The notes beneath the pieces are model-generated. The model worked only from the letters and a program-made list of their open reading frames with translations. It did no database searches and was not told the origin of the DNA. The position numbers and the translations under genes are program-made. This document shows positions 22,957-44,192 of a stretch of 64,000 nucleotides of DNA, in pieces; position 1 is the stretch's first letter, and each line of letters starts with the position of its first letter. This stretch comes from Escherichia coli (lineage in GTDB: Bacteria; Pseudomonadota; Gammaproteobacteria; Enterobacterales; Enterobacteriaceae), in assembly GCF_003019035.1 (NCBI RefSeq), contig NZ_CP027447.1; one strand, 5' to 3'.

Positions 22957-23032
22957 GCCCGGATAGCTCAGTCGGTAGAGCAGGGGATTGAAAATCCCCG
23001 TGTCCTTGGTTCGATTCCGAGTCCGGGCACCA
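22957..23032 (+). tRNA. pheV: tRNA-Phe (GAA)
   Basis: Exact cloverleaf sequence gcccggatagctcagtcggtagagcaggggattgaaaatccccgtgtccttggttcgattccgagtccgggcacca. Confidence 0.9.
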
Positions 23033-32330: not shown

Positions 32331-33092
32331 TTATTTAAAATTCTGATTGTATCTATCAATAAGTATCTCATCATTACATAAATACGTATCAACAAATGAT
32401 TCTATACGAGAAACTGAAATACGCTCAGATGTATCATTAGAACCGTGATTCATAATATAGCAAACAACTGGAGTCTTCATAGCTAATACACTTCTTCCGA
32501 ATGCCAATGAAGATTCTGGATATTTTGTATGGTCTTTTAGTGAAAATAGAAATGTCCCTTTCTCTTCCTGATTTGAACAATCCTTGGCATCTAACTTAGA
32601 TATAAAACAACTACCACAATTTTTATAGAATATCTTTGTAACTCCATCAAGGTAAGCGATCTTCTCCCTGCGGGCATCAAACACATAACCTGTATAAAAT
32701 GCCAGATCATCAGCATCAGGATTTCGGGAAAACATATATTCTACTTGATAAGTGAAATCTTTGGATACCAGATCATCTGCATCAATAAACATGAAATAGT
32801 CACCAACTTTTGCAGTTTCGAGTATTTTTCGACGCGCGACATTTTTTTTTGATGCTTTGTCTGCCATGTAACCATTTTTATCTTCCGGGACGGGATGCCA
32901 GACTTTGATAAACTCAGTCCGTGGATTCTGATATCCACTTATAAACTCAGGAATGTCATGACATGCAACGACAATGCGATAGTCGCCACCCGCCCCCTCA
33001 ATTGACTTGATTGTAGCTTCCAGTCGAACGCAAACTTCATTCCAATCGTTAGAAGTCTGTTTTGCCCTGAGTGGGATTGCATAATGAAACAT
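32331..33092 (-). CDS. Putative glycosyltransferase or capsule-modifying enzyme (DxD motif, FIDADD)
   Basis: 253-aa ORF, AT-rich, between kpsS and kpsT; DADD motif suggests nucleotide-sugar transferase; function inferred only. Confidence 0.45.
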   Translation of the reverse strand: MFHYAIPLRAKQTSNDWNEVCVRLEATIKSIEGAGGDYRIVVACHDIPEFISGYQNPRTEFIKVWHPVPEDKNGYMADKASKKNVARRKILETAKVGDYFMFIDADDLVSKDFTYQVEYMFSRNPDADDLAFYTGYVFDARREKIAYLDGVTKIFYKNCGSCFISKLDAKDCSNQEEKGTFLFSLKDHTKYPESSLAFGRSVLAMKTPVVCYIMNHGSNDTSERISVSRIESFVDTYLCNDEILIDRYNQNFK

Positions 33093-33171
33093 TTTTATTC
33101 CTTATATACGTTAAATTAATAATATTATAATAAAGAGAACTACCTAATGTAAATAATATAAAATATTACAG

Positions 33172-33837
33172 CTAGGTAATATTCTCTTCTTCAGTGTATT
33201 TTTTTATGGCCTGTTCAACATCGTCATAATAATGAATAGCATTATCTCTACCCAAAAAAAGCGCAACATCACAGTATTCTTTTAATGAGTTAAGGCTGTG
33301 CGAAACCATAACAAAATTAGATTCAGAACGCCTAGCTTTAAATATTTTTGCACATTTCTCTCTAAATCGAGCATCACCAACCGCGGTAATTTCATCGACC
33401 AAATAGTAATCAAATTTGAACGCCATGCTTAATCCAAATCCTAGACGAGATCGCATCCCTGATGAATAAGACTTGATCGGCATATCAAAATATGTACCTA
33501 ATTCCGAAAATTCTTCTACAAAATTAATTTTTTCTTTAAGATCTTTTTTATCTGCATATAAACGCGCTACAAACTTTACATTTTCCCTTCCAGTCAGACT
33601 TCCTTGAAAACCACCAGAAATTCCAACAGGCCAAGAAATAGTTTTGTTTGTATAAACGGCCCCCTTGTCTGGTCTATCTATACCACCTATTATACGAAGA
33701 AGAGTGGATTTACCTGCTCCATTACGTCCAAGTAGCGCAATACTTTTACCACTTGGTAATTCAACATTTAAATCTTTAAATACATAATGTCGTCCTTGTG
33801 GTGTGAGATATGATTTAGTTAAGTTTTTAATTATGAT
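33172..33837 (-). CDS. kpsT: Capsule ABC exporter ATP-binding protein
   Basis: ORF 33172..33897; Walker A GRNGAGKST, ABC signature YSSGMRSRL, Walker B YYLVDE; likely start at MIIIKNLTKSY. Confidence 0.8.
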   Translation of the reverse strand: MIIKNLTKSYLTPQGRHYVFKDLNVELPSGKSIALLGRNGAGKSTLLRIIGGIDRPDKGAVYTNKTISWPVGISGGFQGSLTGRENVKFVARLYADKKDLKEKINFVEEFSELGTYFDMPIKSYSSGMRSRLGFGLSMAFKFDYYLVDEITAVGDARFREKCAKIFKARRSESNFVMVSHSLNSLKEYCDVALFLGRDNAIHYYDDVEQAIKKYTEEENIT

Positions 33838-34035
33838 CATAAAGTTAATAACACCTTGTGTATTGCTATACAATATAGGAACTCCGCATCTACCCAAGCA
33901 GTGATAAAAATAGGCCCATTATAAATGTTTTATAAATTTTAATTATAGGGAAACACATTAGAATGGGCCATGTAAATTATCGATACATCATCATAATTAA
34001 CAGTTTGGGCGTCATGACTCCCTTTAATTATACAA

Positions 34036-36798
34036 CTATATAAAAGCAATTTCTTTACTAAATCCTTTTTTAATAATTTTACAATTTTTCAAGTAATCAT
34101 CGTCTTCGATCCTCCATGTATGAGAATTCGTATTTCCATAACGCATTTGAATAAAGTTATATTTATCTGATGAGTAAATAATGAAGCCATTTTTCTTGCA
34201 TTCTTTGAGGAAATTAGTGTCTTCACCACGGTTTATGCATTCAAACTTAATTTTTTCAAAAACCTCTTTTCTAATTACTAAACTTCCTCCTGAAATGAAA
34301 TCAGAATAACGATTATCTTTTCCTGGTTGCTTAACTGCCATGATGTCTTTAGATTCTACATAGCAAAAATAAGAATCTTTGCCTACAATGTCGGCACCAC
34401 TAAATTTAAAAGCTTGCAAAGCGTCTAATAAATAGTTATCACCATAAAAATCATCATCATCCATCTTGGCAAGATAATCTCCTGAGGCATGAGTAACACC
34501 ATAATTAAGACACTCACCAAGAGTTATATCCTGTGGTAACTGATATACTTTAACATTAGGCATTCCATTTATCTTGTTTTTAACCACATTTATATCAAAA
34601 CTATCATTATTTAATATAAGTAATAACTCTTTATTCACGTGAGATTGTCGATGATAATTATCAAGCATCATATCAATATTATTGGGACGATTAGTACACA
34701 TAATTATTGATACTTTATCATCTTGAATGACCTTATTTTTAACTCCTATAGTCTTTAGAATCTGCTCAAAACGTTGTTGATACGAATGATACCGAATACA
34801 ATGACGAGCGGCCAAATGTCCTAAACGTTCACGTTCAATATCAGACTCAAGCAACCGTTGAACAATAGTTTTCGCTTCGAGTTTGTCTTTAACAATATGT
34901 ACATGTTCACCAAGCATAGCTTTCATACCATCAGAATGAGTTGATACAACTGGTGTACCGCAAGCCAAAATTTCGAAAACCCGACGGGAGAACATAGTTG
35001 GTGAGTCCTGAACAGTGTTGATATTCAGGAATAGCTTGTATTGTCTATAAGCAGTGAGCATCTGTTCATAGTCAAGTGAACCAACTATAAATGGTTGGTA
35101 TTTTTCAGGAAAGATTCGTGATTCTCTATGTTTGGTTGCATGCAGCATTCGGTCGTATATATGCAATTCACGATGTGCTGTTCCATCAAGGACAATTTCT
35201 GTTTGTGCTCGACGAGTATCATGTCCATTATTATACCAACTACCGGCAAAACATACTTCGTAAACTGGAAGTTTTTTATTCTTATCACGAATTGGGTTGT
35301 GGATAGCTGGTTGTGCCGCAAAAGGAAGTGCGTATACTCTATTATGTCCAACACGAGACTTGTATTTTTCTAAGATATTCCCATCAGTTGTGAATATATA
35401 GTCACAATCAGCTGCAACATCAATAAAGACTTCGTAGTTGGTTGGATCCTCCTTATTCCAAAATACTACAGGAATATTCTTGGATTGACAGTATTTGATA
35501 ACTTTGCGAAGTGGATCACCCAAATGTTTTTTATAACTCACCATGGTATATGTCCACTCACCATTATTACCATTCCAAGCTGATTCAAGAAATAACATTA
35601 CTGGGTGTGATTCGTCGATCTCTGATTTCCAATTTTGCTTGGTTAACGGAATAAAGTTTGCCTCATAGCGAAAGCATTCATAAGTAAACTTATCACAGAT
35701 CGTTACAACATTGATATGCTGATTTCGCAAGTGTGCATGTGATTCAAAGACAGGCCAACTAATCTCATTATCATGTTTTACCTCATTATAAACACCAACA
35801 CTTTCAAGCAATTGCTTCTTGACACGACAGTTAAGAGGGGGGTGATCAAATTTGCCTTTACGCTTAGCCGCACGAATCTTTATTAGCTTTTGAGGCAAGG
35901 AAAGAAAACCTTTCAGGCTGCTACGTTTAGTCTCTACCATAGTTTTGCCTAAACGATAGTATAAAGACCTTTCTAGTTTCTGCTTCTCGTAGAGAGCTGT
36001 AGCAAGCTTGTCTTTAAGCTCGTCAATTTTTTGCTTTTGTATTTGTGGTGATTCTGGTAATGAGAGAATTCGCGTCTCGAAAGCTTTTGTCAGCGTTTTT
36101 GCTTTCACTTCAAAGTGTCGTATAATTTCCTCATGGCTTTGGCAATTATCAAGCCTTATTGCATTCACGGGTAAAGTTTCTTCAATGTAGAGTTTAATAG
36201 GTTCAATACGAAGTGAACCTTGCCCTTTAAAACGTAATGCCATACTAAAGTAACGCGCATCAGGCATTGTATCGAATTCAATATGATTAATACCGTTATA
36301 AATAAGTTGATATTTGTGAGTAATTCTTTTATTTTCATCATACTGGATAATAAAAATTGCACATTCAGGTCGATTCTCTCCATATGATGTATTTAATACT
36401 AATCGATACTTGAATCCACCATTGATACGCCAGGAGTTTTTGTCCAATGGCAACCCATTAATATTCATACTGCCAGTTTGTAAATAAAAAGAGTCTCCAT
36501 TTATCAAATCCATTTCTACAAACAAACTTCCATCTGACTCTATATGCAAATGCTTATTACGACTATTATCAGCAGGTAATAACCATTCGGTCGATGATTC
36601 TATATTAGAAAGACCATTGAAAGGTAAAAACGGATAGTTTTGCTCTTTCCATTCTATTTTATTGGCCTTACGTGATAATAGACGAAAAAGTTTTTCGAAA
36701 TGACTATCATAGATTGAAAATGCCACCTGAAGTTGGTTAATTTCATCCCCAGTGTGTAATTTATTTTTTACTTTTTTCTTAGTAAGACGATTTGACAT
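34036..36798 (-). CDS. Large three-domain putative capsule polymerase: N-terminal unknown domain, central CgeB-like (GT1-fold) domain, C-terminal GT2 domain
   Basis: 920-aa ORF; central region paralogous to the 329-aa ORF at 39371..40360 (shared ...VFWNKEDP...FAAQP...SRRVFE...G.P... pattern); C-terminus has GT2 hallmarks (VSIIMCTNRP, DDDDF). Confidence 0.6.
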   Translation of the reverse strand: MSNRLTKKKVKNKLHTGDEINQLQVAFSIYDSHFEKLFRLLSRKANKIEWKEQNYPFLPFNGLSNIESSTEWLLPADNSRNKHLHIESDGSLFVEMDLINGDSFYLQTGSMNINGLPLDKNSWRINGGFKYRLVLNTSYGENRPECAIFIIQYDENKRITHKYQLIYNGINHIEFDTMPDARYFSMALRFKGQGSLRIEPIKLYIEETLPVNAIRLDNCQSHEEIIRHFEVKAKTLTKAFETRILSLPESPQIQKQKIDELKDKLATALYEKQKLERSLYYRLGKTMVETKRSSLKGFLSLPQKLIKIRAAKRKGKFDHPPLNCRVKKQLLESVGVYNEVKHDNEISWPVFESHAHLRNQHINVVTICDKFTYECFRYEANFIPLTKQNWKSEIDESHPVMLFLESAWNGNNGEWTYTMVSYKKHLGDPLRKVIKYCQSKNIPVVFWNKEDPTNYEVFIDVAADCDYIFTTDGNILEKYKSRVGHNRVYALPFAAQPAIHNPIRDKNKKLPVYEVCFAGSWYNNGHDTRRAQTEIVLDGTAHRELHIYDRMLHATKHRESRIFPEKYQPFIVGSLDYEQMLTAYRQYKLFLNINTVQDSPTMFSRRVFEILACGTPVVSTHSDGMKAMLGEHVHIVKDKLEAKTIVQRLLESDIERERLGHLAARHCIRYHSYQQRFEQILKTIGVKNKVIQDDKVSIIMCTNRPNNIDMMLDNYHRQSHVNKELLLILNNDSFDINVVKNKINGMPNVKVYQLPQDITLGECLNYGVTHASGDYLAKMDDDDFYGDNYLLDALQAFKFSGADIVGKDSYFCYVESKDIMAVKQPGKDNRYSDFISGGSLVIRKEVFEKIKFECINRGEDTNFLKECKKNGFIIYSSDKYNFIQMRYGNTNSHTWRIEDDDYLKNCKIIKKGFSKEIAFI

Positions 36799-36849
36799 AT
36801 CTATATTCTTTCAATTAAAAAAGTGTTTTCCAGACCAAAATAATATATA

Positions 36850-38103
36850 TTAATTGGCAGCATTTACAAAATCTAGTATTGTAGCGGTTGTATACTTTTT
36901 ATTAATAAGACCTTTAAATTCTTTATGCTTAACTAAAACTAGAACAATATCTGCTTGTTCCAGTGCCTCAGAGAGAGAAACCAATTTAACGTTATTACGT
37001 CCTTTTAAAGCTGATGGCAAATCATCAATATTAGGTTCAACTACTAAAAGCCGATTAGCAGGGTTATCTGCTAATCTTTTGGTAATTTCTAATGCAGGGC
37101 TTTCTCGTAGGTCATCAATATCCGGTTTAAATGCCAATCCCAAACAAGCGATCTTTGGGTTTCTTAGGCCGACAACAACTTGGCTAATTTTTTCAATCAC
37201 ATATTGAGGTTTATAATCGTTGACTAAGCGGGCCTGGTGAATTAACTTTGCAAGTTCTGGATTTTGGTTAACTATAAACCAAGGGTCAACTGCTATGCAA
37301 TGACCGCCAACACCACAGCCAGGCTGAAGAATATTAACTCGCGGATGCCGATTAGCCAATGAAATTAACTCCCATACATTTATACCTTGTTTATCGCAGA
37401 TTAGTGACAGTTCATTTGCAAAAGCAATGTTCACATCCCGAAAAGCATTTTCCGTTAACTTACTCATCTCAGCGGTACGCGCATTAGTGGCAATACATTC
37501 ACCTTTTTTAACGAAAAGTTTGTATAATTCAATTGCTGAAGTTGTACTGTGCTCATCCAGTCCCCCAATGATCCGGTCATTTTCAACTAATTCACGTATA
37601 ACTTGTCCTGGTAACACTCGCTCGGGGCAATGCGCAATGCAAATATCAGCCTTCAATCCATTTTTCATCTGATGAGGAAATGTTAAATCTGGACGCTCTT
37701 CTGCTAACCATTTAGCCATTTGCTCAGTAGCACCAACAGGCGAAGTGGACTCTAAAACAACCAGATTACCCTTTTCAAGTAGTGGCGCTAATGCACGTGA
37801 AGCTGATTCAATATATTTTAAATCAGCCTCAAAGTTCTTTCCTTTAAACGGTGTCGGTACAGCCATGAGGAATGCATCAGCTTTTTGCGGTTCTGTAAAG
37901 GCTTTCAAATATCCTTGGCTAACAGCAGACTTCACTAACTCCTGCAGTCCTGGCTCAACAATATGAATATTCCCTTGATTAATTGTATCTACAGCGTACT
38001 TGTTGATATCTACACCAACAACGTGAATATTGTTGCTAGCAATCACTGCTGCAGTAGGTAAACCAATATACCCTAAACCAATAACAGAAATACGTTTAAA
38101 CAT
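36850..38103 (-). CDS. UDP-N-acetyl-D-mannosamine dehydrogenase (WecC/Cap5O-like)
   Basis: 417-aa ORF with N-terminal Rossmann motif GLGYIGLPTA and UDP-sugar dehydrogenase catalytic Cys region. Confidence 0.75.
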   Translation of the reverse strand: MFKRISVIGLGYIGLPTAAVIASNNIHVVGVDINKYAVDTINQGNIHIVEPGLQELVKSAVSQGYLKAFTEPQKADAFLMAVPTPFKGKNFEADLKYIESASRALAPLLEKGNLVVLESTSPVGATEQMAKWLAEERPDLTFPHQMKNGLKADICIAHCPERVLPGQVIRELVENDRIIGGLDEHSTTSAIELYKLFVKKGECIATNARTAEMSKLTENAFRDVNIAFANELSLICDKQGINVWELISLANRHPRVNILQPGCGVGGHCIAVDPWFIVNQNPELAKLIHQARLVNDYKPQYVIEKISQVVVGLRNPKIACLGLAFKPDIDDLRESPALEITKRLADNPANRLLVVEPNIDDLPSALKGRNNVKLVSLSEALEQADIVLVLVKHKEFKGLINKKYTTATILDFVNAAN

Positions 38104-38185
38104 AATATTGAATCACTCTCTTGGACTAATTTTAATTAACATTAGTATAGATAAAAAAAGCTGTAATAATTTGCTGTTAGTTTAT

Positions 38186-39331
38186 TTATTCCAGTTGATA
38201 TCTAAAACCTAAAACAGCATCTACAATTCGCTGACTTGTTTTGCCATCACCATAAGGATTATTTGCATGACTCATTGACTGATATGTGACATCATCATCT
38301 AATAGACGAATAGTTTCACTCACGATTTCCTTATCACAAGTGCCTACTAAACGCACTGTTCCTGCTTTAACCGCAGCAGGCCGTTCAGTTGTATCACGCA
38401 TACATAGAACTGGCTTTCCTAATGACGGAGCTTCTTCTTGAATCCCGCCAGAATCTGTTAATATCAGATAACATTGCTTCATTAGATATACAAATGGTAA
38501 ATAATCCTGAGGTTCAATTAGATAAATATTTTCTAATTTTTGCAAATTTCTTTTCACTGGTTGTTGCACATTTGGATTCAAATGTACTGGGTAAATGATT
38601 TGAACGTCATCTCGTTGAGACAATTTAGCTAAAGCATTGCAAATTCGTTCAATTCCTTCTCCATGATTTTCTCTGCGGTGTAAGGTGACAAGGATCATTT
38701 TTTTATTTTTATCGATAAAATCAAATTGAGACTCCAACTGTTTTCTTAATATGGAGTTTTGTTCAATTTTGTTTGATACAGACACCAAAGCATCAATAAC
38801 TGAATTCCCTGTTAAAAAAATATTTTCTGGTGGAATATTTTCCATTATAAGATTTTTCAATGCACCAGCAGTCGGAGCATAGTGTTGGTCAGCAATTCCT
38901 CCCGTTAGTCGACGCATACCTTCTTCAGGCCATGGAGAATAAATATTTCCTGTGCGTAGACCGGCTTCAACATGGCCTACAGCAATATGATGATAATAAG
39001 CAGCTAATGTTGCTGCGAATGAAGTTGCTGTATCTCCATGGACAAGGATACGATTTGGTGTAAATTTAGAAAATACCGTTTTTAACCCTTGTAAGATAGC
39101 TGTTGTTACATCGGTTAAATCTTGACCAGGCCTCATAATATTGAGATCATAGTCAGGCTTAATCTCAAATAATTTTAACACTTGATCCAACATCTCACGA
39201 TGCTGTCCAGTTACACATACTCGCGCGTCTATTAGATTATTATTTTCAAATGCCTTAACAATAGGGGCCATTTTTATAGCCTCTGGTCTAGTACCAAATA
39301 TTATAAGTATTTTTTGCTGTATCATTTTCAT
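38186..39331 (-). CDS. UDP-N-acetylglucosamine 2-epimerase, non-hydrolysing (WecB-like)
   Basis: 381-aa [28 protein letters not shown]...; strong family resemblance. Confidence 0.8.
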
Positions 39332-39370
39332 CCTTCTTTAACATTAAAGAATAAACATTACATTTTTTAA

Positions 39371-40360
39371 CTAATAAAGTTCAAAATCCCGATTCATCTG
39401 CTGAAGGCGATGATGCCAGGTATGTTGAGATAATACAATTTCTTTTGCGCGTTCCCCCAAGACAGTTCTTTTATTTATGTCTTTTTGCAATTCCAAACAC
39501 CATTCTCGCGCGGATTGACCATTCGCAATTGAAATAATACTATCCTCAAATATACGATTCATAGCTATTGATGGACTGCTGATTATAGAACACCCTGAAG
39601 CACCTAATTCAAAAACCCTCCGTGAAAGCATTGTTGTAGATTTTCTAATTGTATTAAAATTTAGATAGATTTGATATTGAGTGTATGCCTGTGCAACTAA
39701 ATTTAAAGGAATTGATGGTCGACAATATACATGTAAATCATTTGGATAACTACAGTTATTTTTTTTATTCCAAAATCGATCATAAATAACCAACCCACAT
39801 CTTGAAAGTGAGTGTAGAACATCATATTGCATTTGGCTCCTTTCACTAAACTGATTACCATAGTAGCCACCAAAAAATGCAACACCATATTTCCGCTTTA
39901 CTTGAGGAACAGACTTATACCAATGAGGTTGCGCTGCAAACATCAGTACACCTACTGACTGGCACCTGTGGTCTAGTAATGAGTCATATCGATTAATTGA
40001 ATCCGCGTCTGTTGTATATATTATATCAAAAAAAGAAGCTGAATCAGAAAACCTTTCAAAATGGAATGGATCTTCTTTATTCCAAAATACAGTTTTTATT
40101 TTTTTTCTTTTGCAATATTCAACTATTTTCTTTAATTCATTGTTATTATCTGGTTTGTTTTCATAACTTGCTATTTTACCTTGCCAGCTATTCCTATATC
40201 CTCTCCAAGCAGATTCAACAAACAAAAAATCAGGTTTAAACAAGCGTAATTTCCAACGCCAATCAAAGGGAGTTAAAGGCAAAATATCTGCATCTGGAGC
40301 CAAACCATATGTCGTAAACTCATCTGCGATTAATGCAATACAAGGTTTTTTTTTCTTCAA
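39371..40360 (-). CDS. CgeB-like glycosyltransferase-fold protein
   Basis: 329-aa ORF paralogous to the central domain of the 920-aa protein; apparent TTG start followed by an A9 tract. Confidence 0.5.
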   Translation of the reverse strand: MKKKKPCIALIADEFTTYGLAPDADILPLTPFDWRWKLRLFKPDFLFVESAWRGYRNSWQGKIASYENKPDNNNELKKIVEYCKRKKIKTVFWNKEDPFHFERFSDSASFFDIIYTTDADSINRYDSLLDHRCQSVGVLMFAAQPHWYKSVPQVKRKYGVAFFGGYYGNQFSERSQMQYDVLHSLSRCGLVIYDRFWNKKNNCSYPNDLHVYCRPSIPLNLVAQAYTQYQIYLNFNTIRKSTTMLSRRVFELGASGCSIISSPSIAMNRIFEDSIISIANGQSAREWCLELQKDINKRTVLGERAKEIVLSQHTWHHRLQQMNRDFELY

Positions 40361-40729
40361 AATAATTCCCGCTGAATATTATTGAGTTCATACTAACAAA
40401 GAATCATTGATTGAATTTAAAGCATGTTATAAATACACTTTGACATGATTGCATCCAAAGCATCATAATTAAATAAATGTATTATTTTCCAACAAGGTCA
40501 TCTTATATAGATTATTATATATAAATGAGTGATATGGAATTATATTGGAACGAACAGAATGCGACTTAAAACATAACGCATTTGAGCATTAATAAAAATA
40601 TTACTTATTATAACATTAAAAAATACTTTCTTATGCCGTGCCATTATCTTTTAACTAGCACAGTTTTTATTATATTAATATTATTAATATAATAAAATCT
40701 AAACCGTTATTTATTTTATTCACAACAAC

Positions 40730-41728
40730 TTATATACCTAAAATATATTTAACCTTCCTGTACATTGTATCATAACGATCTACATGGCCAGGTTTATTAT
40801 CAAAGTATATGCTATAATCTCGAATATCATCCCCCCTATCAATACATCGTTGTATAAATGATAAAAGCAATGTTGTGTCGTAATGGCATTCATCACTAAT
40901 GGCGTTTTTATATTTATCTCTAAAAATACGATAATTCTCTTCTCTTGCACTATAATAACTATCATTGTGCTTTTTGTCATGATATAAATGAAGAGCTAAA
41001 TCTTTCTGAAGCAATATATCTAAACAATACTCTCCCAAATATTTTCTGAACCCAGTAGTAAATAACGGAGAATGACATGGTTTATCTATCAAAAAATCAG
41101 ATTTTAGTTTTGACAAAAAGTGATGGTTATATAAACGTATCAAAAAATCAAAATCTTCATACCCATGACCTTGAAAGCTTTCATCAAACCCATGTATTTT
41201 TTTATAGCTTTCTGACTTCAAAATTGTAATAGAGGAGGGACTTGCTAAATGTAAAAACTCTTTTCTTGAAAAATCAAAATATCTTTTTTTTAATAACTCT
41301 ACTGATATCTTTTTTTTAATTAATATGTGCGTCCCATATTTTGTCAAATATAAACACGGTAAAATATAGAATGGTTTTACTCCTTTTTGTATTTTATTTT
41401 TATATTTTTCGAATAAAACAACATCAGGATATATATCCACATCAAGCAATATGATAAATTCAGTATCAACTAATTTGAATGCAAAATTTCTTAGCAATGA
41501 AGTATTTATGTATTTATAACTACAATCGTATGAATTGACAATAACATGGTTATATTCACTCAAGGCTTCTATAAATACATGATCGTATTTAGTAAAGCGA
41601 TTTCCGTGACCAAATATAATTTTAAAATTATTTTCCCTAGTTGCTTCGGCAATACTAATTGCTTTCTGAATAATATCTTTAGGTCTGCGTTTTAGGTCTA
41701 TTGGGATTATAGCGGTTAACATTTTCAA
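40730..41728 (-). CDS. Putative GT2-family glycosyltransferase
   Basis: 332-aa ORF with AIIPI...LLDVDIYP and GYEDFDF motifs; extremely AT-rich. Confidence 0.45.
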   Translation of the reverse strand: MKMLTAIIPIDLKRRPKDIIQKAISIAEATRENNFKIIFGHGNRFTKYDHVFIEALSEYNHVIVNSYDCSYKYINTSLLRNFAFKLVDTEFIILLDVDIYPDVVLFEKYKNKIQKGVKPFYILPCLYLTKYGTHILIKKKISVELLKKRYFDFSRKEFLHLASPSSITILKSESYKKIHGFDESFQGHGYEDFDFLIRLYNHHFLSKLKSDFLIDKPCHSPLFTTGFRKYLGEYCLDILLQKDLALHLYHDKKHNDSYYSAREENYRIFRDKYKNAISDECHYDTTLLLSFIQRCIDRGDDIRDYSIYFDNKPGHVDRYDTMYRKVKYILGI

Positions 41729-41822
41729 ACTATTTGTAAGCCATAACAGATGTATGTTACAAAATCCATAGTATTTTCAATTGTGGCATTTCCTTTTTTA
41801 TTAAATTGCAAAGCCACACTAA

Positions 41823-42599
41823 TCATGATGTCAGCATTGCCTCTTCACGCGTTCGGTATAACGCCAGACCGATGAACAGGGTGACCAGAGTGAACATTGC
41901 AAGGTAGTTTAGACTCACGCCTTCGCTGATATAGCCAGGCATAACTGCCTCGCGGCTTAACTCTACGACATGCACTAATGGATTCCAGAGTAGATATGAC
42001 CAGTATTGCTTCGGAATCGAGTGTAGAGGGAACATGATGCAGGAGATGAAATACAGCGGCTTAAGCAGTATCGGCAGGACCTTTTGCATTTCAGGGAAAG
42101 TCTTACCAACGACCATGAATATTAAGCCAACGCCACATGAAAGAATGATTAACAAACTCCAGGTAAGCACAAGTTGTAAAAAGTTTGTTATTTCGAAATA
42201 TTCGCCTGCCATCCAGACAATAAGCATAAGCAATATATAAACAGCAACATAAATCAGTGTCTCAAGCAATGCACGCGCAATGATCGTATCGATGGGTTTT
42301 ACTGGTCGATAATTAAACAGCCCCTGATTCGCTTCAATAGCACCTACAGAACGATTGCTGATACTGCTAAAGATAAAAAAGGGAATCAGGCCATTAAGTA
42401 AAAACACCGGGAATGAGATGTCTGGCATCGTGCGGTGCATAATGTAACCAAAAATGCCCAACAGTATCAGCAAATGCGCAGAGGGTTCGAGAATCGCCCA
42501 CAGATATCCCAGACGGAACTTACCAAAGCGTGTTCGTATTTCTCGTAGAAATAATGCCTCTACGGTGACTTTCTGGACTTCAAATCCACTTCTTGCCAT
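41823..42599 (-). CDS. kpsM: Capsule ABC exporter permease
   Basis: ORF 41823..42659; start MARSGFEVQKVTVEALFLREIRTRFGK; ABC-2 permease. Confidence 0.85.
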   Translation of the reverse strand: MARSGFEVQKVTVEALFLREIRTRFGKFRLGYLWAILEPSAHLLILLGIFGYIMHRTMPDISFPVFLLNGLIPFFIFSSISNRSVGAIEANQGLFNYRPVKPIDTIIARALLETLIYVAVYILLMLIVWMAGEYFEITNFLQLVLTWSLLIILSCGVGLIFMVVGKTFPEMQKVLPILLKPLYFISCIMFPLHSIPKQYWSYLLWNPLVHVVELSREAVMPGYISEGVSLNYLAMFTLVTLFIGLALYRTREEAMLTS

Positions 42600-42630
42600 T
42601 TGATGATGTGATCCTAATCTCTTCAGGTAC

Positions 42631-42642
42631 GCTACCGCCCTT
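42631..42642 (-). promoter_or_regulatory. ops (operon polarity suppressor) / JUMPstart element for RfaH-dependent antitermination
   Basis: Minus-strand sequence GGCGGTAGCGTA about 30 nt upstream of the kpsM start; matches the ops core GGCGGTAG known upstream of kpsM. Confidence 0.6.
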
Positions 42643-43637
42643 GGCTTAACAGCTACCAATACACTGGAGGTAATGCTTATTTGTAACTGGATAAAATTTA
42701 CTCAGACGGTTTGACCTTTTTAATAGCCGCAAAAAATTTCAGCAGAAATTATTTCCGCAGGGATAAATAGATCTATTTCCGTCTCGTTTCTTCTAATCCA
42801 TTCTTCAGGCATGAATGTATTCGGTCTTCTGGTAATTTCAGAAAACTGGCCGTTTTAGAATGTAGAGTTAATTTCTCAGGAAATTATTTTTTGTTCTTAC
42901 TGTTAACTACTTGATTATAATACCCCATATGGATTTTATGCGTAACAATACCTGCAATCTGTTTCAAACCAGAACGCATGCGATTGATTACCAATAAATT
43001 GTTTAGCGAGAAACTATTTCCCTATTTAAAATTCACTCATGTACTTCTTATTTATATCTACAGCACCCTCTTTACAGTCACATTTGTGATTTACATCACA
43101 TTTAAACGGTGTTATTTAAGCCCCATTAATAATTCCGTGAGTAATTATTTTCGTCAATTAAAATATACATCTTGATTATTTTGTGCGTTTATTTTAACCA
43201 GCGTTACAGCCAGCATTATCCCTCAGTAGATATACCTGAGCAGACATTTCTTAAAATCGACGAATAGTTTCCCTGGAAATTATTATGCTTATTTGAAATT
43301 CCCTTTCTGATTATCTCCAGTAATTTTACTAATTTCCAGGCTACACAAAATACAGATCACATAAGAATTATCCTATATGTTTTGACCTATCAATTGTTAC
43401 TCAATGATTTATTACAACTATTAATAATCATAATGTGTCAAAACACTTAAGCATCTTTACAGTCTTAGAAAGGTGTCGATTAACGAAGGCTACATGGTGA
43501 AAAACAGGTTCCTTCAGTGTTACCGAATATTCCGTGGTGGTCTGGAGGGAGATAATTCTTGCTACATCGAAACTCAGCCCGGTGAGCGGGTTTGACAGTT
43601 CCGCACTCACCATTGGGCTAAGGGTTATCAGGTGGGG

Positions 43638-44192
43638 TTAAGGAAATGGCAATACCTCCCCCCGTCCAAACTCCAGTCGCTGCACATTCACCATCCCAGG
43701 CTTCTCAGCAGCACTGACATCAATTTGTGTCACCCGCAGCGCATATTTTTCATCCAGTGCGTTTAACCAGTTCAGCAGGTCATTAAACACCACAGGTTCT
43801 ATCCAGACTTGAATATTCTCCCCTCGCTCGGCTATTCGCTTAATGACCACTGAATGCGCCGAAGCACTGTCGCTGATGACCCGCGATACCTGTGCTGGCG
43901 TTGTCGTGGCGGATTTTCGCGCCGCAATAATATCCGGCGCAGTGCTCTTCAGTCGCGCGTTCATCGCCACGAGCTGCTGCAACATCGTCTCCTGTTGTTC
44001 TATCCGTTCGCTCAACGGCTGCCAGATGAGGACGTAATATCCGGCGCTAAACAGGAACACTACCGCTGCCAGTAACATGCCTTTTTCACGCGGAGAACGT
44101 CCCGCCAGGTGTTGTGTCAGCCAGTGTTCGCCACGGCTTAACTGGCGTTCACGCCATTGCTGAAAATAGTGAATAAATTTATCGCGTAACAT
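43638..44192 (-). CDS. gspM: Type II secretion system protein M
   Basis: 184-aa ORF, single TM segment, last gene of the gsp operon. Confidence 0.75.
   Translation of the reverse strand: MLRDKFIHYFQQWRERQLSRGEHWLTQHLAGRSPREKGMLLAAVVFLFSAGYYVLIWQPLSERIEQQETMLQQLVAMNARLKSTAPDIIAARKSATTTPAQVSRVISDSASAHSVVIKRIAERGENIQVWIEPVVFNDLLNWLNALDEKYALRVTQIDVSAAEKPGMVNVQRLEFGRGEVLPFP

Follow-up and report, generated by a model that had tools for sequence, protein, structure and literature searches.

The interval between gspM (yghD) and kpsM at positions 42600–43637 of the window (the whole 64-kb stretch of DNA that was analysed) almost certainly corresponds, judging from its sequence, to the known PR3 promoter, leader and ops system of the group 2 capsule locus. 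The flagged stretch is an already known system with minor new detail and not a new element, and the main value of the analysis is negative because the PR3/leader/ops system is already well described. The new detail is an inverted repeat, AATTTC-N4-GAAAYT, whose conservation in the leader is real and for which two candidate roles, as RNA hairpins or as a protein operator, are considered below. Capsules of group 2, with K1, K5 and K2 among them, rank as major virulence factors of extraintestinal E. coli, and both their export genes and their synthesis genes are driven from PR3 through its long leader.

Both kpsM and gspM are encoded on the minus strand, so that the motifs named in the original prediction are the complement of the transcribed strand. 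The interval is 100% identical to its counterpart in E. coli SCU-301, where it lies between yghD and a gene for an ABC transporter permease (kpsM), and its identity to the leader of the K5 strain Nissle 1917 is 95.7%. The region-3 interval was found in 1699 of 5426 complete E. coli genomes. For allele comparison, 11 genome alleles were aligned and the set was extended to 47 unique alleles sampled from approximately 1700 genomes; the alleles are mostly more than 90% identical, with some only about 75–79% identical overall. This strain carries a short leader allele, like the K1 and K5 alleles examined. The CFT073-type (K2) alleles are 117 nt longer, the 95-nt core of the insert is present in 419 genomes, and the longer allele is probably ancestral.

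The spacer of about 1 kb had been described as non-coding, and no conserved ORF was indeed found in it. The starts, frames or stops of leader ORFs of 30, 36, 61 and 65 codons are not kept across divergent alleles (the 30-codon ORF starts in the conserved block at 42800–42836 and is broken in these alleles), and the small ORFs gave no Pfam match above threshold; on both grounds, a small protein-coding gene in the leader was rejected. The hairpin located directly after gspM (MFE −15.1 kcal/mol, z = −1.6) has a stem that is invariant in 11 alleles, except for a change from U·G to U-A in the divergent group, and is probably the end of the gsp operon, outside the capsule leader. The coordinates of all features are collected in Table 1.

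Table 1. Features of the gspM–kpsM intergenic region, with positions in the window.
Feature	Position	Strand	Basis or remark
Whole stretch between gspM (yghD) and kpsM, region-3 control region of the group 2 capsule locus	42600..43637	−	ORF map, homology
Conserved hairpin GGTGAGTG...CGCTCACC directly after gspM	43581..43611	−	Alignment, folding
Promoter-upstream core AATTGATAGGTCAAAACATATAGGATAATTCTTA	43362..43395 (−55..−22)	−	Invariant blocks, 11 alleles
PR3 (= kpsM P1) −10 hexamer TATTTT	43352..43347	−	Published K5 start mapped through Nissle alignment
PR3/P1 transcription start, placed by homology	43338..43340	−	K5 −741 mapping; leader ~741 nt here
Predicted 5′-terminal stem-loop, CCUGGAAAUUA (+1..+11) paired with UAAUUUCCAGG (+59..+69)	43272..43340	−	Folding
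Inverted repeat copy A, AATAATTTC CAGG GAAACT	43266..43284	−	Contains GGAAATTATT (43275) and TTTCCCT (43268)
CRP operator TGTGA-N6-TCACA (published)	43085..43100		Sole perfect match in window
Conserved block UUUAAAUAGGGAAAUAGUUUCUC with second TTTCCCT (43017..43023)	43008..43030	−	Alignment
TATAAT (42919..42914) overlapping an exact match to the IHF consensus, AATCAAGTAGTTA (42916..42904)	42904..42919	−	TATAAT invariant
Inverted repeat copy B, AATAATTTC CTGA GAAATT	42870..42888	−	Site of the additional 117 nt and fourth copy in long alleles
Highly conserved leader block GAAGACCGAATACATTCATGCCTGAAGAAT	42800..42836	−	Alignment
Perfect 14-bp palindrome AAATAGATCTATTT, central GATC	42765..42778		Sequence scan
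Inverted repeat copy C, AATAATTTC TGCT GAAATT, overlapping the alternative hairpin GCGGAAAUAAUUUCUGC	42735..42758	−	Alignment, folding
JUMPstart with ops GGCGGTAGCGTA (42639..42628)	42628..42666	−	Rfam RF01707
Shine-Dalgarno-like AGGA (42615..42612) and kpsM start codon (42599..42597)	42597..42615	−	Read from sequence

The K5 PR3 start is located 741 nt before kpsM (Stevens et al. 1997 and Xue et al. 2009, as summarised in PMC8960920). The assignment of TATTTT as the −10 hexamer is consistent with both the '-13G' and the '245G' published mutations. The hexamer sits inside the 17-mer TGATCTGTATTTTGTGT, which is invariant in 11 alleles, and is itself intact in 46 of 47 alleles. PR3 would have no −35 element; the place where one would be reads TAGGAT, which is conserved. 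Most of the invariant blocks of the promoter-upstream core remain invariant in the 47 alleles, and the core falls, as mapped here, inside the published upstream H-NS footprint; a 12/14 match to the RcsAB box was found at 43375–43362. A comparison with 35 non-Escherichia kpsM loci indicated that only JUMPstart/ops is broadly conserved and that the promoter core recurs in three species: the sequence TTGATAG-N3-AAAAC-N3-TAGGAT can be aligned in Pantoea (two species) and in Phytobacter, there with a single change.

The CRP operator is located about 250 nt downstream of P1. A CRP site at −492.5 from kpsM has been demonstrated in EAEC 042 by ChIP-seq, bandshift and repression (PMC12360894). Among the alleles the half-sites are conserved and the spacer is variable. 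The operator encloses the −10 hexamer of the weak promoter P2, which reads TGTAAA here versus TATAAA in 042, K1 and K5. Since the natural G coincides, by mapping, with the base of the engineered P2-minus change 245G, P2 is probably inactive in this allele, and differences between alleles in CRP-sensitive expression are predicted from this base.

At the other end of the leader, the ops-like element that had been noticed about 30 nt upstream of kpsM was confirmed. The JUMPstart segment matched the Rfam RF01707 covariance model over its full length (58.5 bits versus a cut-off of 35). It contains GGCGGTAG on the non-template strand (42639–42632, minus), and the 12-nt ops element GGCGGTAGCGTA ends 28 nt before the kpsM ATG, which agrees with the published spacing (PMC8960920). 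The last ops base is A, as in the other aligned kps leaders, and the kpsM start codon matches the RefSeq annotation. In 29 of the 35 other species GGCGGTAG was found 32–48 nt before kpsM. A search of plasmid and phage collections revealed relatives of the JUMPstart segment only, apart from a single plasmid-labelled record of 4.9 Mb in which 49% of the leader is covered. A permissive search for other Rfam families in the leader gave chance-level matches only. Dependence of downstream transcription on RfaH, the elongation factor that loads at ops, has been shown for kps in CFT073 by ChIP-seq. The polymerase has to travel about 8.7 kb beyond ops to reach kpsT, which in this strain belongs to the same transcription unit, so capsule export should rely unusually strongly on leader read-through.

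The repeated motif of the original prediction was recovered as GAAATTATT on the plus strand at 42745, 42880 and 43276, and in the GGAAATTATT form at 42879 and 43275. The complement of GAAATTATT is AAUAAUUUC, which forms an arm of the inverted repeat AATTTC-N4-GAAAYT. In its extended form, AATAATTTC-N4-GAAAYT, the repeat occurs exactly three times in the 64-kb window, always in this leader and always downstream of the mapped PR3 start, and four times in the allele with the additional 117 nt. Dinucleotide shuffles of the leader itself were used as the chance baseline: three copies of the extended repeat were obtained in none of 3000 shuffles, and one 6-nt arm shared by at least two perfect 6/4 inverted repeats in only 0.1%. 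The hexamer GAAATT/AATTTC was found 8 times versus 1.5 expected, and GGAAAT/ATTTCC is also over-represented. The bare 9-mer is less telling, since some 9-mer recurs at least three times in 14% of the shuffles; as first described, neither the 9-mer nor TTTCCCT nor the palindrome is significant when post-hoc choice is allowed for.

Among the 47 unique alleles, 7 of 36 arm columns are variable. The figure is 298 of 693 (43%) for the remaining leader columns (p = 0.005) and 9 of 12 for the spacer columns (p = 0.0009 versus arms). In copy A the arms are conserved and the spacer reads CAGG, CAGT, CCAA or CACA; the arms of copy C are invariant in 47 alleles and its spacer reads TGCT, CGGC or TGAT. 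Neither of the two refuting conditions named with the original prediction applies to the GAAATTATT-type motif: homologous leaders keep it, and its extended form lies far above the expectation for AT-rich DNA. No repeats were found in the kpsM leaders of the 35 non-Escherichia loci.

The other two motifs fared differently: neither the palindrome nor TTTCCCT goes beyond chance or is conserved as a unit. The perfect 14-bp palindrome is present 2 nt away from its predicted coordinates (given as 42763–42776, actually 42765–42778). A perfect palindrome of at least 14 bp arises in 10.5% of leader dinucleotide shuffles, and this one is perfect in 37 of 47 unique alleles; its centre reads GATTAA, AACCAA, GAACAG or GCTTAA in divergent alleles, five of the six central columns being variable. 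It is an allele-specific accident within a conserved flank. A conserved hairpin at this place was rejected, with folding no better than in shuffles and a varying centre, as was a Dam-methylation switch, the GATC being lost in divergent alleles. TTTCCCT was present at 43017 and 43268 as claimed, occurs 13 times in the window versus 8 expected and is no more than a piece of two larger elements, copy A and a further conserved block. In the latter, AATAGTTTC is invariant in 47 alleles and two of the seven TTTCCCT columns vary. Invariance in 47 alleles was also observed for ATGCCTGAAGAAT in the block at 42800–42836.

The best explanation overall, which we hold with moderate confidence, is the known PR3/ops leader with repeats most likely acting in the leader RNA. 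The narrower statement, that the repeats work in the RNA and not as a DNA operator, is plausible, though short of probable. The 73-nt 5′ domain has an MFE of −18.2 kcal/mol (z = −4.6, reached in 0 of 200 shuffles), with z values of −2.3 and −2.6 in the K5 and CFT073-type alleles, and RNAalifold gave the same 5′ stem. All 11 genome alleles keep its 8-bp core paired; four of the changes in it are wobble-compatible, and one, from A-U to G-C, is compensatory. A single change that disrupts the 5′ stem was found in 4 of 47 alleles. The covariation score of this stem was reached in 68 of 500 shuffles and is not significant, and the covariation terms given by RNAalifold are small (−0.37 and −0.23). 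When the alignments were read by eye, six arm substitutions in copies A, B and B′ kept or improved pairing, mostly via G·U, and three to five arm changes were incompatible with pairing. As local hairpins the copies differ: copy A (−1.0 kcal/mol) is no better than shuffles, copy B has −3.2 kcal/mol (z = −3.3), and the alternative hairpin at copy C has −6.4 kcal/mol (z = −2.3). No double changes were found in hairpins B and C among the alleles compared. An intrinsic terminator or attenuator at copy C, flagged by a terminator scan, was rejected: the stem is weak (7 pairs, only 3 of them G-C), and the T-run is set off from it by 5 nt and varies, reading TTGTTT, TTGGTC or TTGTTC in other alleles.

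A competing but doubtful reading takes the repeats as DNA operators. They would be bound by a dimeric regulator with sequence specificity, with YbdO or a capsule-gene regulator not yet mapped as candidates, and it would act inside the leader as a roadblock or anti-silencer. Conserved arms with a free spacer of fixed length are the classic operator pattern, and the copies, three here and four in the long allele, show identical 6-bp arms around a fixed 4-bp spacer of free sequence; because all copies share one arm sequence, a sequence-specific protein fits better than structure alone. CRP, too, already acts from within the leader. However, no protein is known to recognise AATTTC-N4-GAAATT, the even-length 6-4-6 repeat is unlike the usual LysR-type T-N11-A box, and several arm changes are of the G·U type, which are mismatches in a DNA palindrome. 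In EMSA and ChIP-qPCR, YbdO binds a fragment made up of the 300 bp directly before kpsM (PMC9141747); this fragment includes the palindrome and repeat copies B and C, but copy A lies outside it and overlaps the 5′ stem. MprA and LrhA act on both PR1 and PR3 (PMC8960920), but no repeat copy was found in the co-regulated PR1 region, which argues against regulators shared by the two promoters, and no motifs were found to be shared with the PR1 region upstream of kpsF.

The motifs had also been proposed as sites of the known thermoregulatory and nucleoid-protein control. The K5 PR3 is bound by H-NS and SlyA and is under temperature control (PMC8960920), and the published H-NS footprints, −135 to −21 and +141 to +219 (PMC8960920, review), correspond to about 43475–43361 and 43200–43122 when the K5 −741 start is carried over via the Nissle 1917 leader. 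Copy A (+57 to +75), the second TTTCCCT (+318 to +324), copy B (+453 to +471), the palindrome (+563 to +576) and copy C (+588 to +606) all lie outside both DNase I footprints as mapped, although the footprinted fragment may not cover the distal leader; the proposal was not supported. At the thresholds used, the SlyA, H-NS, IHF, FNR, RcsAB and Lrp consensus sequences gave no match on these motifs; a 13/19 Fur-like match over copy A is near chance level. For IHF, there is no established role at PR3 (PMC8960920). It is very unlikely that the motifs serve as AT-rich words with AATT cores that nucleate or extend an H-NS/StpA filament as part of temperature silencing. The low G+C content of the leader (29–35% versus about 51–55% in gspM), the over-represented hexamers, the binding of H-NS on both sides of the PR3 start (PMC8960920) and the coating of the kps operon by H-NS-StpA would suit such a role, but, besides the footprints, no motif matches the high-affinity H-NS site, of which the leader has 2 matches versus 2.4 expected from shuffles, and neither a fixed 4-nt spacer nor conserved arms with free spacers are needed for H-NS binding. 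It is also unlikely that the repeats are functionless leftovers of small duplications, conserved through the recent common origin of the leader alleles. Two copies bound the 117-nt length difference as direct repeats, which shows their involvement in duplication or deletion; the high identity of most alleles points the same way, as does the lack of repeats in other genera and in a group 3 leader that retains the promoter and ops. Neutral leftovers, however, would not show the contrast between spacers and arms against the 43% background, nor copy C arms that stay invariant even in alleles only about 75–79% identical overall.

Returning to the preferred reading, the leader would work as follows, with the promoter, CRP and RfaH steps taken from published work by homology. 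RNA polymerase would initiate at PR3/P1 (−10 TATTTT, no −35) and make a leader of about 741 nt without a conserved ORF, and CRP bound about 250 nt downstream of the start would dampen expression. Copy A would pair with the first 10–11 nt of the transcript, and the resulting 5′-terminal stem-loop could shield the long leader against degradation. Short hairpins with free loops would form at copies B and C, and the repeats together would have a share in the published influence that the leader exerts on the amount of transcript reaching kpsM. At JUMPstart/ops, RfaH would load onto the polymerase, letting it traverse kpsM and about 10 kb of following genes. The leader repeat and the possible 5′ stem-loop might in this way explain the published, unexplained moderating effect of the leader. 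A wider proposal, to which we give a rather low probability, is that the repeats form an Escherichia-specific control module, either as operators for YbdO or an unknown protein or as mutually exclusive weak A/U hairpins that include the 5′-terminal stem. If true, the module would set the amount of PR3 transcript surviving to ops, and the common 117-nt deletion of one copy would alter capsule expression between lineages. The existence of two common leader length classes that differ by one repeat copy is a detail of possible specialist interest.

A comparison with known systems places the leader among described ones. Long leaders in bacteria, such as the ompA 5′ UTR, can be stabilised by 5′-terminal stem-loops, and here a stem is likewise predicted at the first nucleotides, placed by homology, of a long leader without a conserved ORF; the resemblance is one of possible mechanism and not of membership, with no sequence relationship. 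The group 3 leader next to yghD (e.g., MS1494) shares the first 411 nt after yghD, comprising P1 and roughly 110 nt at the start of the leader, together with a JUMPstart/ops; it lacks the middle ~530 nt, where the palindrome, the CRP site and repeat copies B and C are located, and has only a degenerate copy A. Since the repeats are absent in other genera and the group 3 locus is without most of the leader, they are not essential to the ops/RfaH mechanism. There is no difference of substance from the JUMPstart/ops of O-antigen, core-LPS, haemolysin and F tra operons. The kpsM P1/P2 region of EAEC 042 (PMC12360894) has the TGTGA/TCACA half-sites equally far from kpsM, centred at about −493. The K5/K1 PR3 with its 741-nt 5′ UTR has the same position between yghD and kpsM, the same −10 region and mapped leader length, and an ops element 28 nt before kpsM, and differs from the leader of this strain by allelic differences only.

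The interval 42600..43637 (1038 bp) is flanked by kpsM and gspM/yghD, and it was read on the minus strand because both genes lie on that strand. It is a known regulatory region, and the original prediction recognised it correctly as the kpsM leader. E. coli SCU-301 contains a sequence 100% identical to the window; there, the interval is bordered on one side by yghD, with which the gsp type II secretion operon ends, and on the other by the ABC transporter permease gene kpsM. The interval is carried by 1699 of 5426 complete E. coli genomes, with a single occurrence per genome in nearly all of them. Its small ORFs are not maintained across divergent alleles, and none of them reached the threshold in a Pfam search. 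The G+C content drops from ~0.51 to 0.31 near 43480; upstream of about this position, the alleles form two strongly differing sequence types, suggestive of a recombination boundary. The hairpin behind gspM, which carries a compensating U.G to U-A change in a divergent allele group, is probably the end of the gsp operon.

Features of the kpsM leader and its surroundings (window coordinates)
Feature	Position	Strand	Remark
kpsT	33172..33842	minus	ABC ATPase gene; followed by one more glycosyltransferase
kpsM	41823..42599	minus	
Repeat copy C	42753..42735	minus	spacer TGCT
Repeat copy B	42888..42870	minus	spacer CTGA
TATAAT	42919..42914	minus	perfect and invariant; ~315 nt before kpsM
CRP site TGTGA-N6-TCACA	43100..43085		sole perfect match in the window
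Repeat copy A	43284..43266	minus	spacer CAGG
-10 hexamer TATTTT	43352..43347	minus	mapped from the K5 start
Promoter-upstream core TTGATAG-N3-AAAAC-N3-TAGGAT	43362..43395	minus	also aligns in other genera
Hairpin, 8-9 bp	43581..43611	minus	conserved; directly after the gspM stop codon
gspM/yghD	43638..44192	minus	

In K5, the transcription start of PR3, the region-3 promoter (P1 of kpsM), lies 741 bp ahead of kpsM; the promoter has a -10 hexamer and lacks a -35 element (PMC8960920). Via the leader of the K5 strain Nissle 1917 (95.7% identity to the window), this start maps to 43339/43340, 7 bases past TATTTT. For EAEC 042, a 2025 study (PMC12360894) located P1 ~750 bp ahead of kpsM and a CRP site at -492.5, which encloses the -10 hexamer TATAAA of a second, weak promoter, P2. 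With +1 set at 43338, the mutations '-13G' and '245G' of that study fall on the second base of TATTTT and TATAAA, respectively. The hexamer within the CRP operator (43090..43095) is TGTAAA in the window, with G at 43094; TATAAA is present in 26 of the 47 unique alleles. By mapping, this G corresponds to 245G, the base change engineered to abolish P2 (PMC12360894), and therefore the CRP-repressed promoter P2 is probably inactive in the window allele. The CRP half-sites stay conserved although the P2 hexamer differs. Further upstream, TAGGATAATTCTTA (43375..43362, -35..-22) fits the RcsAB box at 12 of 14 positions. AATCAAGTAGTTA, within 42904..42919 on the minus strand, exactly matches the IHF consensus and overlaps the TATAAT hexamer, which could be a further internal promoter. 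RcsB effects on kps expression were described in a K92 study, and a CFT073 study mentioned two different predicted kps starts, one by 5' RACE and one by RNA-seq.

The published K5 control sites comprise H-NS footprints at -135..-21 and +141..+219, the upstream one overlapped by SlyA, and an ops element 28 bp before kpsM that permits RfaH-dependent read-through into region 2; FNR, Fur, MprA and LrhA provide further input, and the long leader moderates the amount of transcription reaching region 3 (PMC8960920). Mapped onto the window, the footprints correspond to ~43475..43361 and ~43200..43122. The predicted ops GGCGGTAGCGTA occupies 42639..42628 (minus strand) and ends 28 nt short of the ATG, and a full-length JUMPstart was found at 42666..42628 (Rfam, 58.5 bits; cut-off 35). 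Note that the leader RNA strand (42600..43340) contains more G than C (plus-strand GC skew -0.1 to -0.33), the opposite of a C-rich, G-poor Rho-loading site; this bias stands out in a leader of ~741 nt that has no conserved ORF and lies upstream of the RfaH loading site.

The other predicted motifs were all present in the leader: GAAATTATT at 42745, 42880 and 43276, TTTCCCT at 43017 and 43268, and the palindrome AAATAGATCTATTT, whose position is 42765..42778, 2 nt off the one predicted. In dinucleotide shuffles of the leader itself, with the post hoc choice of motifs allowed for, the motifs as described were within reach of chance: 14% of shuffles had some 9-mer at least three times, and 10.5% had a perfect palindrome of at least 14 bp. 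For TTTCCCT, 13 occurrences were counted in the window, with 8 expected. The motifs had been proposed as candidate sites of thermoregulatory and nucleoid-protein control, or of an unrecognised regulator. By mapped coordinates, none coincides with the published sites, and all lie elsewhere in the transcribed leader: copy A of the repeat described below and the first TTTCCCT at +57..+75, the second TTTCCCT at +318..+324, the second GAAATTATT at +453..+471, the palindrome at +563..+576 and the third GAAATTATT at +588..+606.

On the transcribed strand, all three GAAATTATT sites have the form AATAATTTC-N4-GAAAYT, an inverted repeat AATTTC/GAAATT with a 4-nt spacer (copies A, B and C). The 64-kb window contains this extended pattern exactly three times, always within the leader, a result seen in 0 of 3000 shuffles; 0.1% of shuffles had the same arm in at least two perfect 6/4 inverted repeats, and the hexamer GAAATT/AATTTC was observed 8 times against 1.5 expected. 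To evaluate conservation, 47 unique alleles of the leader were compiled, drawn from 11 genomes and 67 metagenome contigs. Variable columns made up 7 of 36 in the repeat arms versus 298 of 693 in the rest of the leader (p = 0.005) and 9 of 12 in the spacers (p = 0.0009 versus arms), and the arms of copy C were invariant in 47 of 47 alleles. Thus, a larger repeat that is real, conserved and non-random underlies GAAATTATT. TTTCCCT is not a unit of its own: at 43268 it consists of the spacer and the 3' arm of copy A, and at 43017 it is a piece of a different conserved block. The perfect palindrome shows the opposite pattern. It is allele-specific and not beyond chance, with conserved flanks around a centre in which five of six columns are variable; GATC is absent from divergent alleles, and the palindrome's hairpin folds no better than those of shuffles.

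Two leader length classes were revealed. The long class (the CFT073/ATCC 25922 type and all the most divergent alleles, including that of E. whittamii) has 117 extra nt bounded by two repeat copies as 20-nt direct repeats AAATAATTTCYTGMGAAATTA, and long alleles therefore contain four copies. The 95-nt core of the insert was found in 419 genomes, about a quarter of the leader carriers. In the short class (window, K1, K5), the extra segment seems to have been lost by deletion between the direct repeats.

No published function of the GAAATTATT repeat was found in the literature. The first 73 nt of the inferred transcript are predicted to fold into a stem-loop (-18.2 kcal/mol, z = -4.6; 0 of 200 shuffles as good), in which CCUGGAAAUUA (+1..+11) pairs with UAAUUUCCAGG (+59..+69), the 5' arm of copy A. 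For the K5 and CFT073-type alleles, z was -2.3 and -2.6, and RNAalifold recovered the same stem. Its 8-bp core is paired in 11 of 11 genome alleles (four wobble-compatible changes, one A-U to G-C double change), and our reading of the alignments shows, for copies A, B and B' (the extra copy of long alleles), several C-to-U or A-to-G changes in the arms that retain G.U pairs. However, covariation in the stem was not significant (score reached by 68 of 500 shuffles), the RNAalifold covariation terms were just -0.37 and -0.23, a single disruptive change occurs in 4 of 47 alleles, and the local repeat hairpins are weak (-1.0 and -3.2 kcal/mol).

The arm sequences are identical in every copy, which would suit a sequence-specific protein with the repeats as its DNA operator. 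The LysR-type regulator YbdO shifts a fragment spanning 300 bp before kpsM (PMC9141747), and this fragment includes copies B and C and the palindrome. The stem evidence, its counterpoints and the YbdO fragment therefore led us to place action at the RNA level first, as possible and somewhat short of probable, and a DNA operator second. Repeats without function, to be set against the arm conservation, come third, and H-NS nucleation sites, with the mapped footprints lying elsewhere, fourth.

In the wider locus (32331..42599, minus strand), five region-2 genes (galactosyltransferase-related, CgeB-family, wecB-like, wecC-like and a 920-aa glycosyltransferase) intervene between kpsM and kpsT, so that kpsT lies ~8.7 kb downstream of ops. 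All genes from kpsM to the last glycosyltransferase run in one direction, converging on kpsS, and 54 of the 5426 complete E. coli genomes share the kpsM-glycosyltransferase junction. A tRNA-Phe (GAA) at 22957..23032, ~1.2 kb before kpsF, is probably pheV, where capsule islands are known to insert. At the other end of the window, 62360..62581 matches the sRNA family C0719 over its full length. The existence of atypical K-loci with other kpsM/kpsT arrangements was mentioned in a 2026 preprint.

The comparison of the leader was extended to 35 Enterobacterales species outside Escherichia, using the loci of their kpsM relatives (63-86% protein identity). The JUMPstart/ops segment is the sole part common to these loci, barring the promoter core in three, and in 29 of these species GGCGGTAG precedes kpsM by 32-48 nt. 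The promoter-upstream core recurs in two Pantoea and one Phytobacter species (one change in Phytobacter), just ~250-370 nt before kpsM. The repeats are absent from all 35 loci. In addition, the 45-nt JUMPstart segment of the leader matches conjugative plasmids of E. coli, Enterobacter and Klebsiella in a plasmid collection (~91-95% identity), presumably ops-containing leaders of transfer operons.

The group 3 capsule locus of MS1494 retains P1 and approximately the first 110 nt of the leader, fused to JUMPstart/ops, but lacks the middle ~530 nt of the group 2 leader. In this locus (3001..3520), JUMPstart/ops is followed by a remnant of the kpsM start with ATG changed to ATT, and a frameshifted hypothetical gene and kpsD lie further downstream. 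Because the middle section with the repeats, CRP site and palindrome is missing in the other genera and in MS1494, it is specific to Escherichia group 2 leaders, and the core promoter-ops-RfaH mechanism does not require it. Modest additions to a known system are the repeat family, the two leader length classes and the natural P2-hexamer variant.
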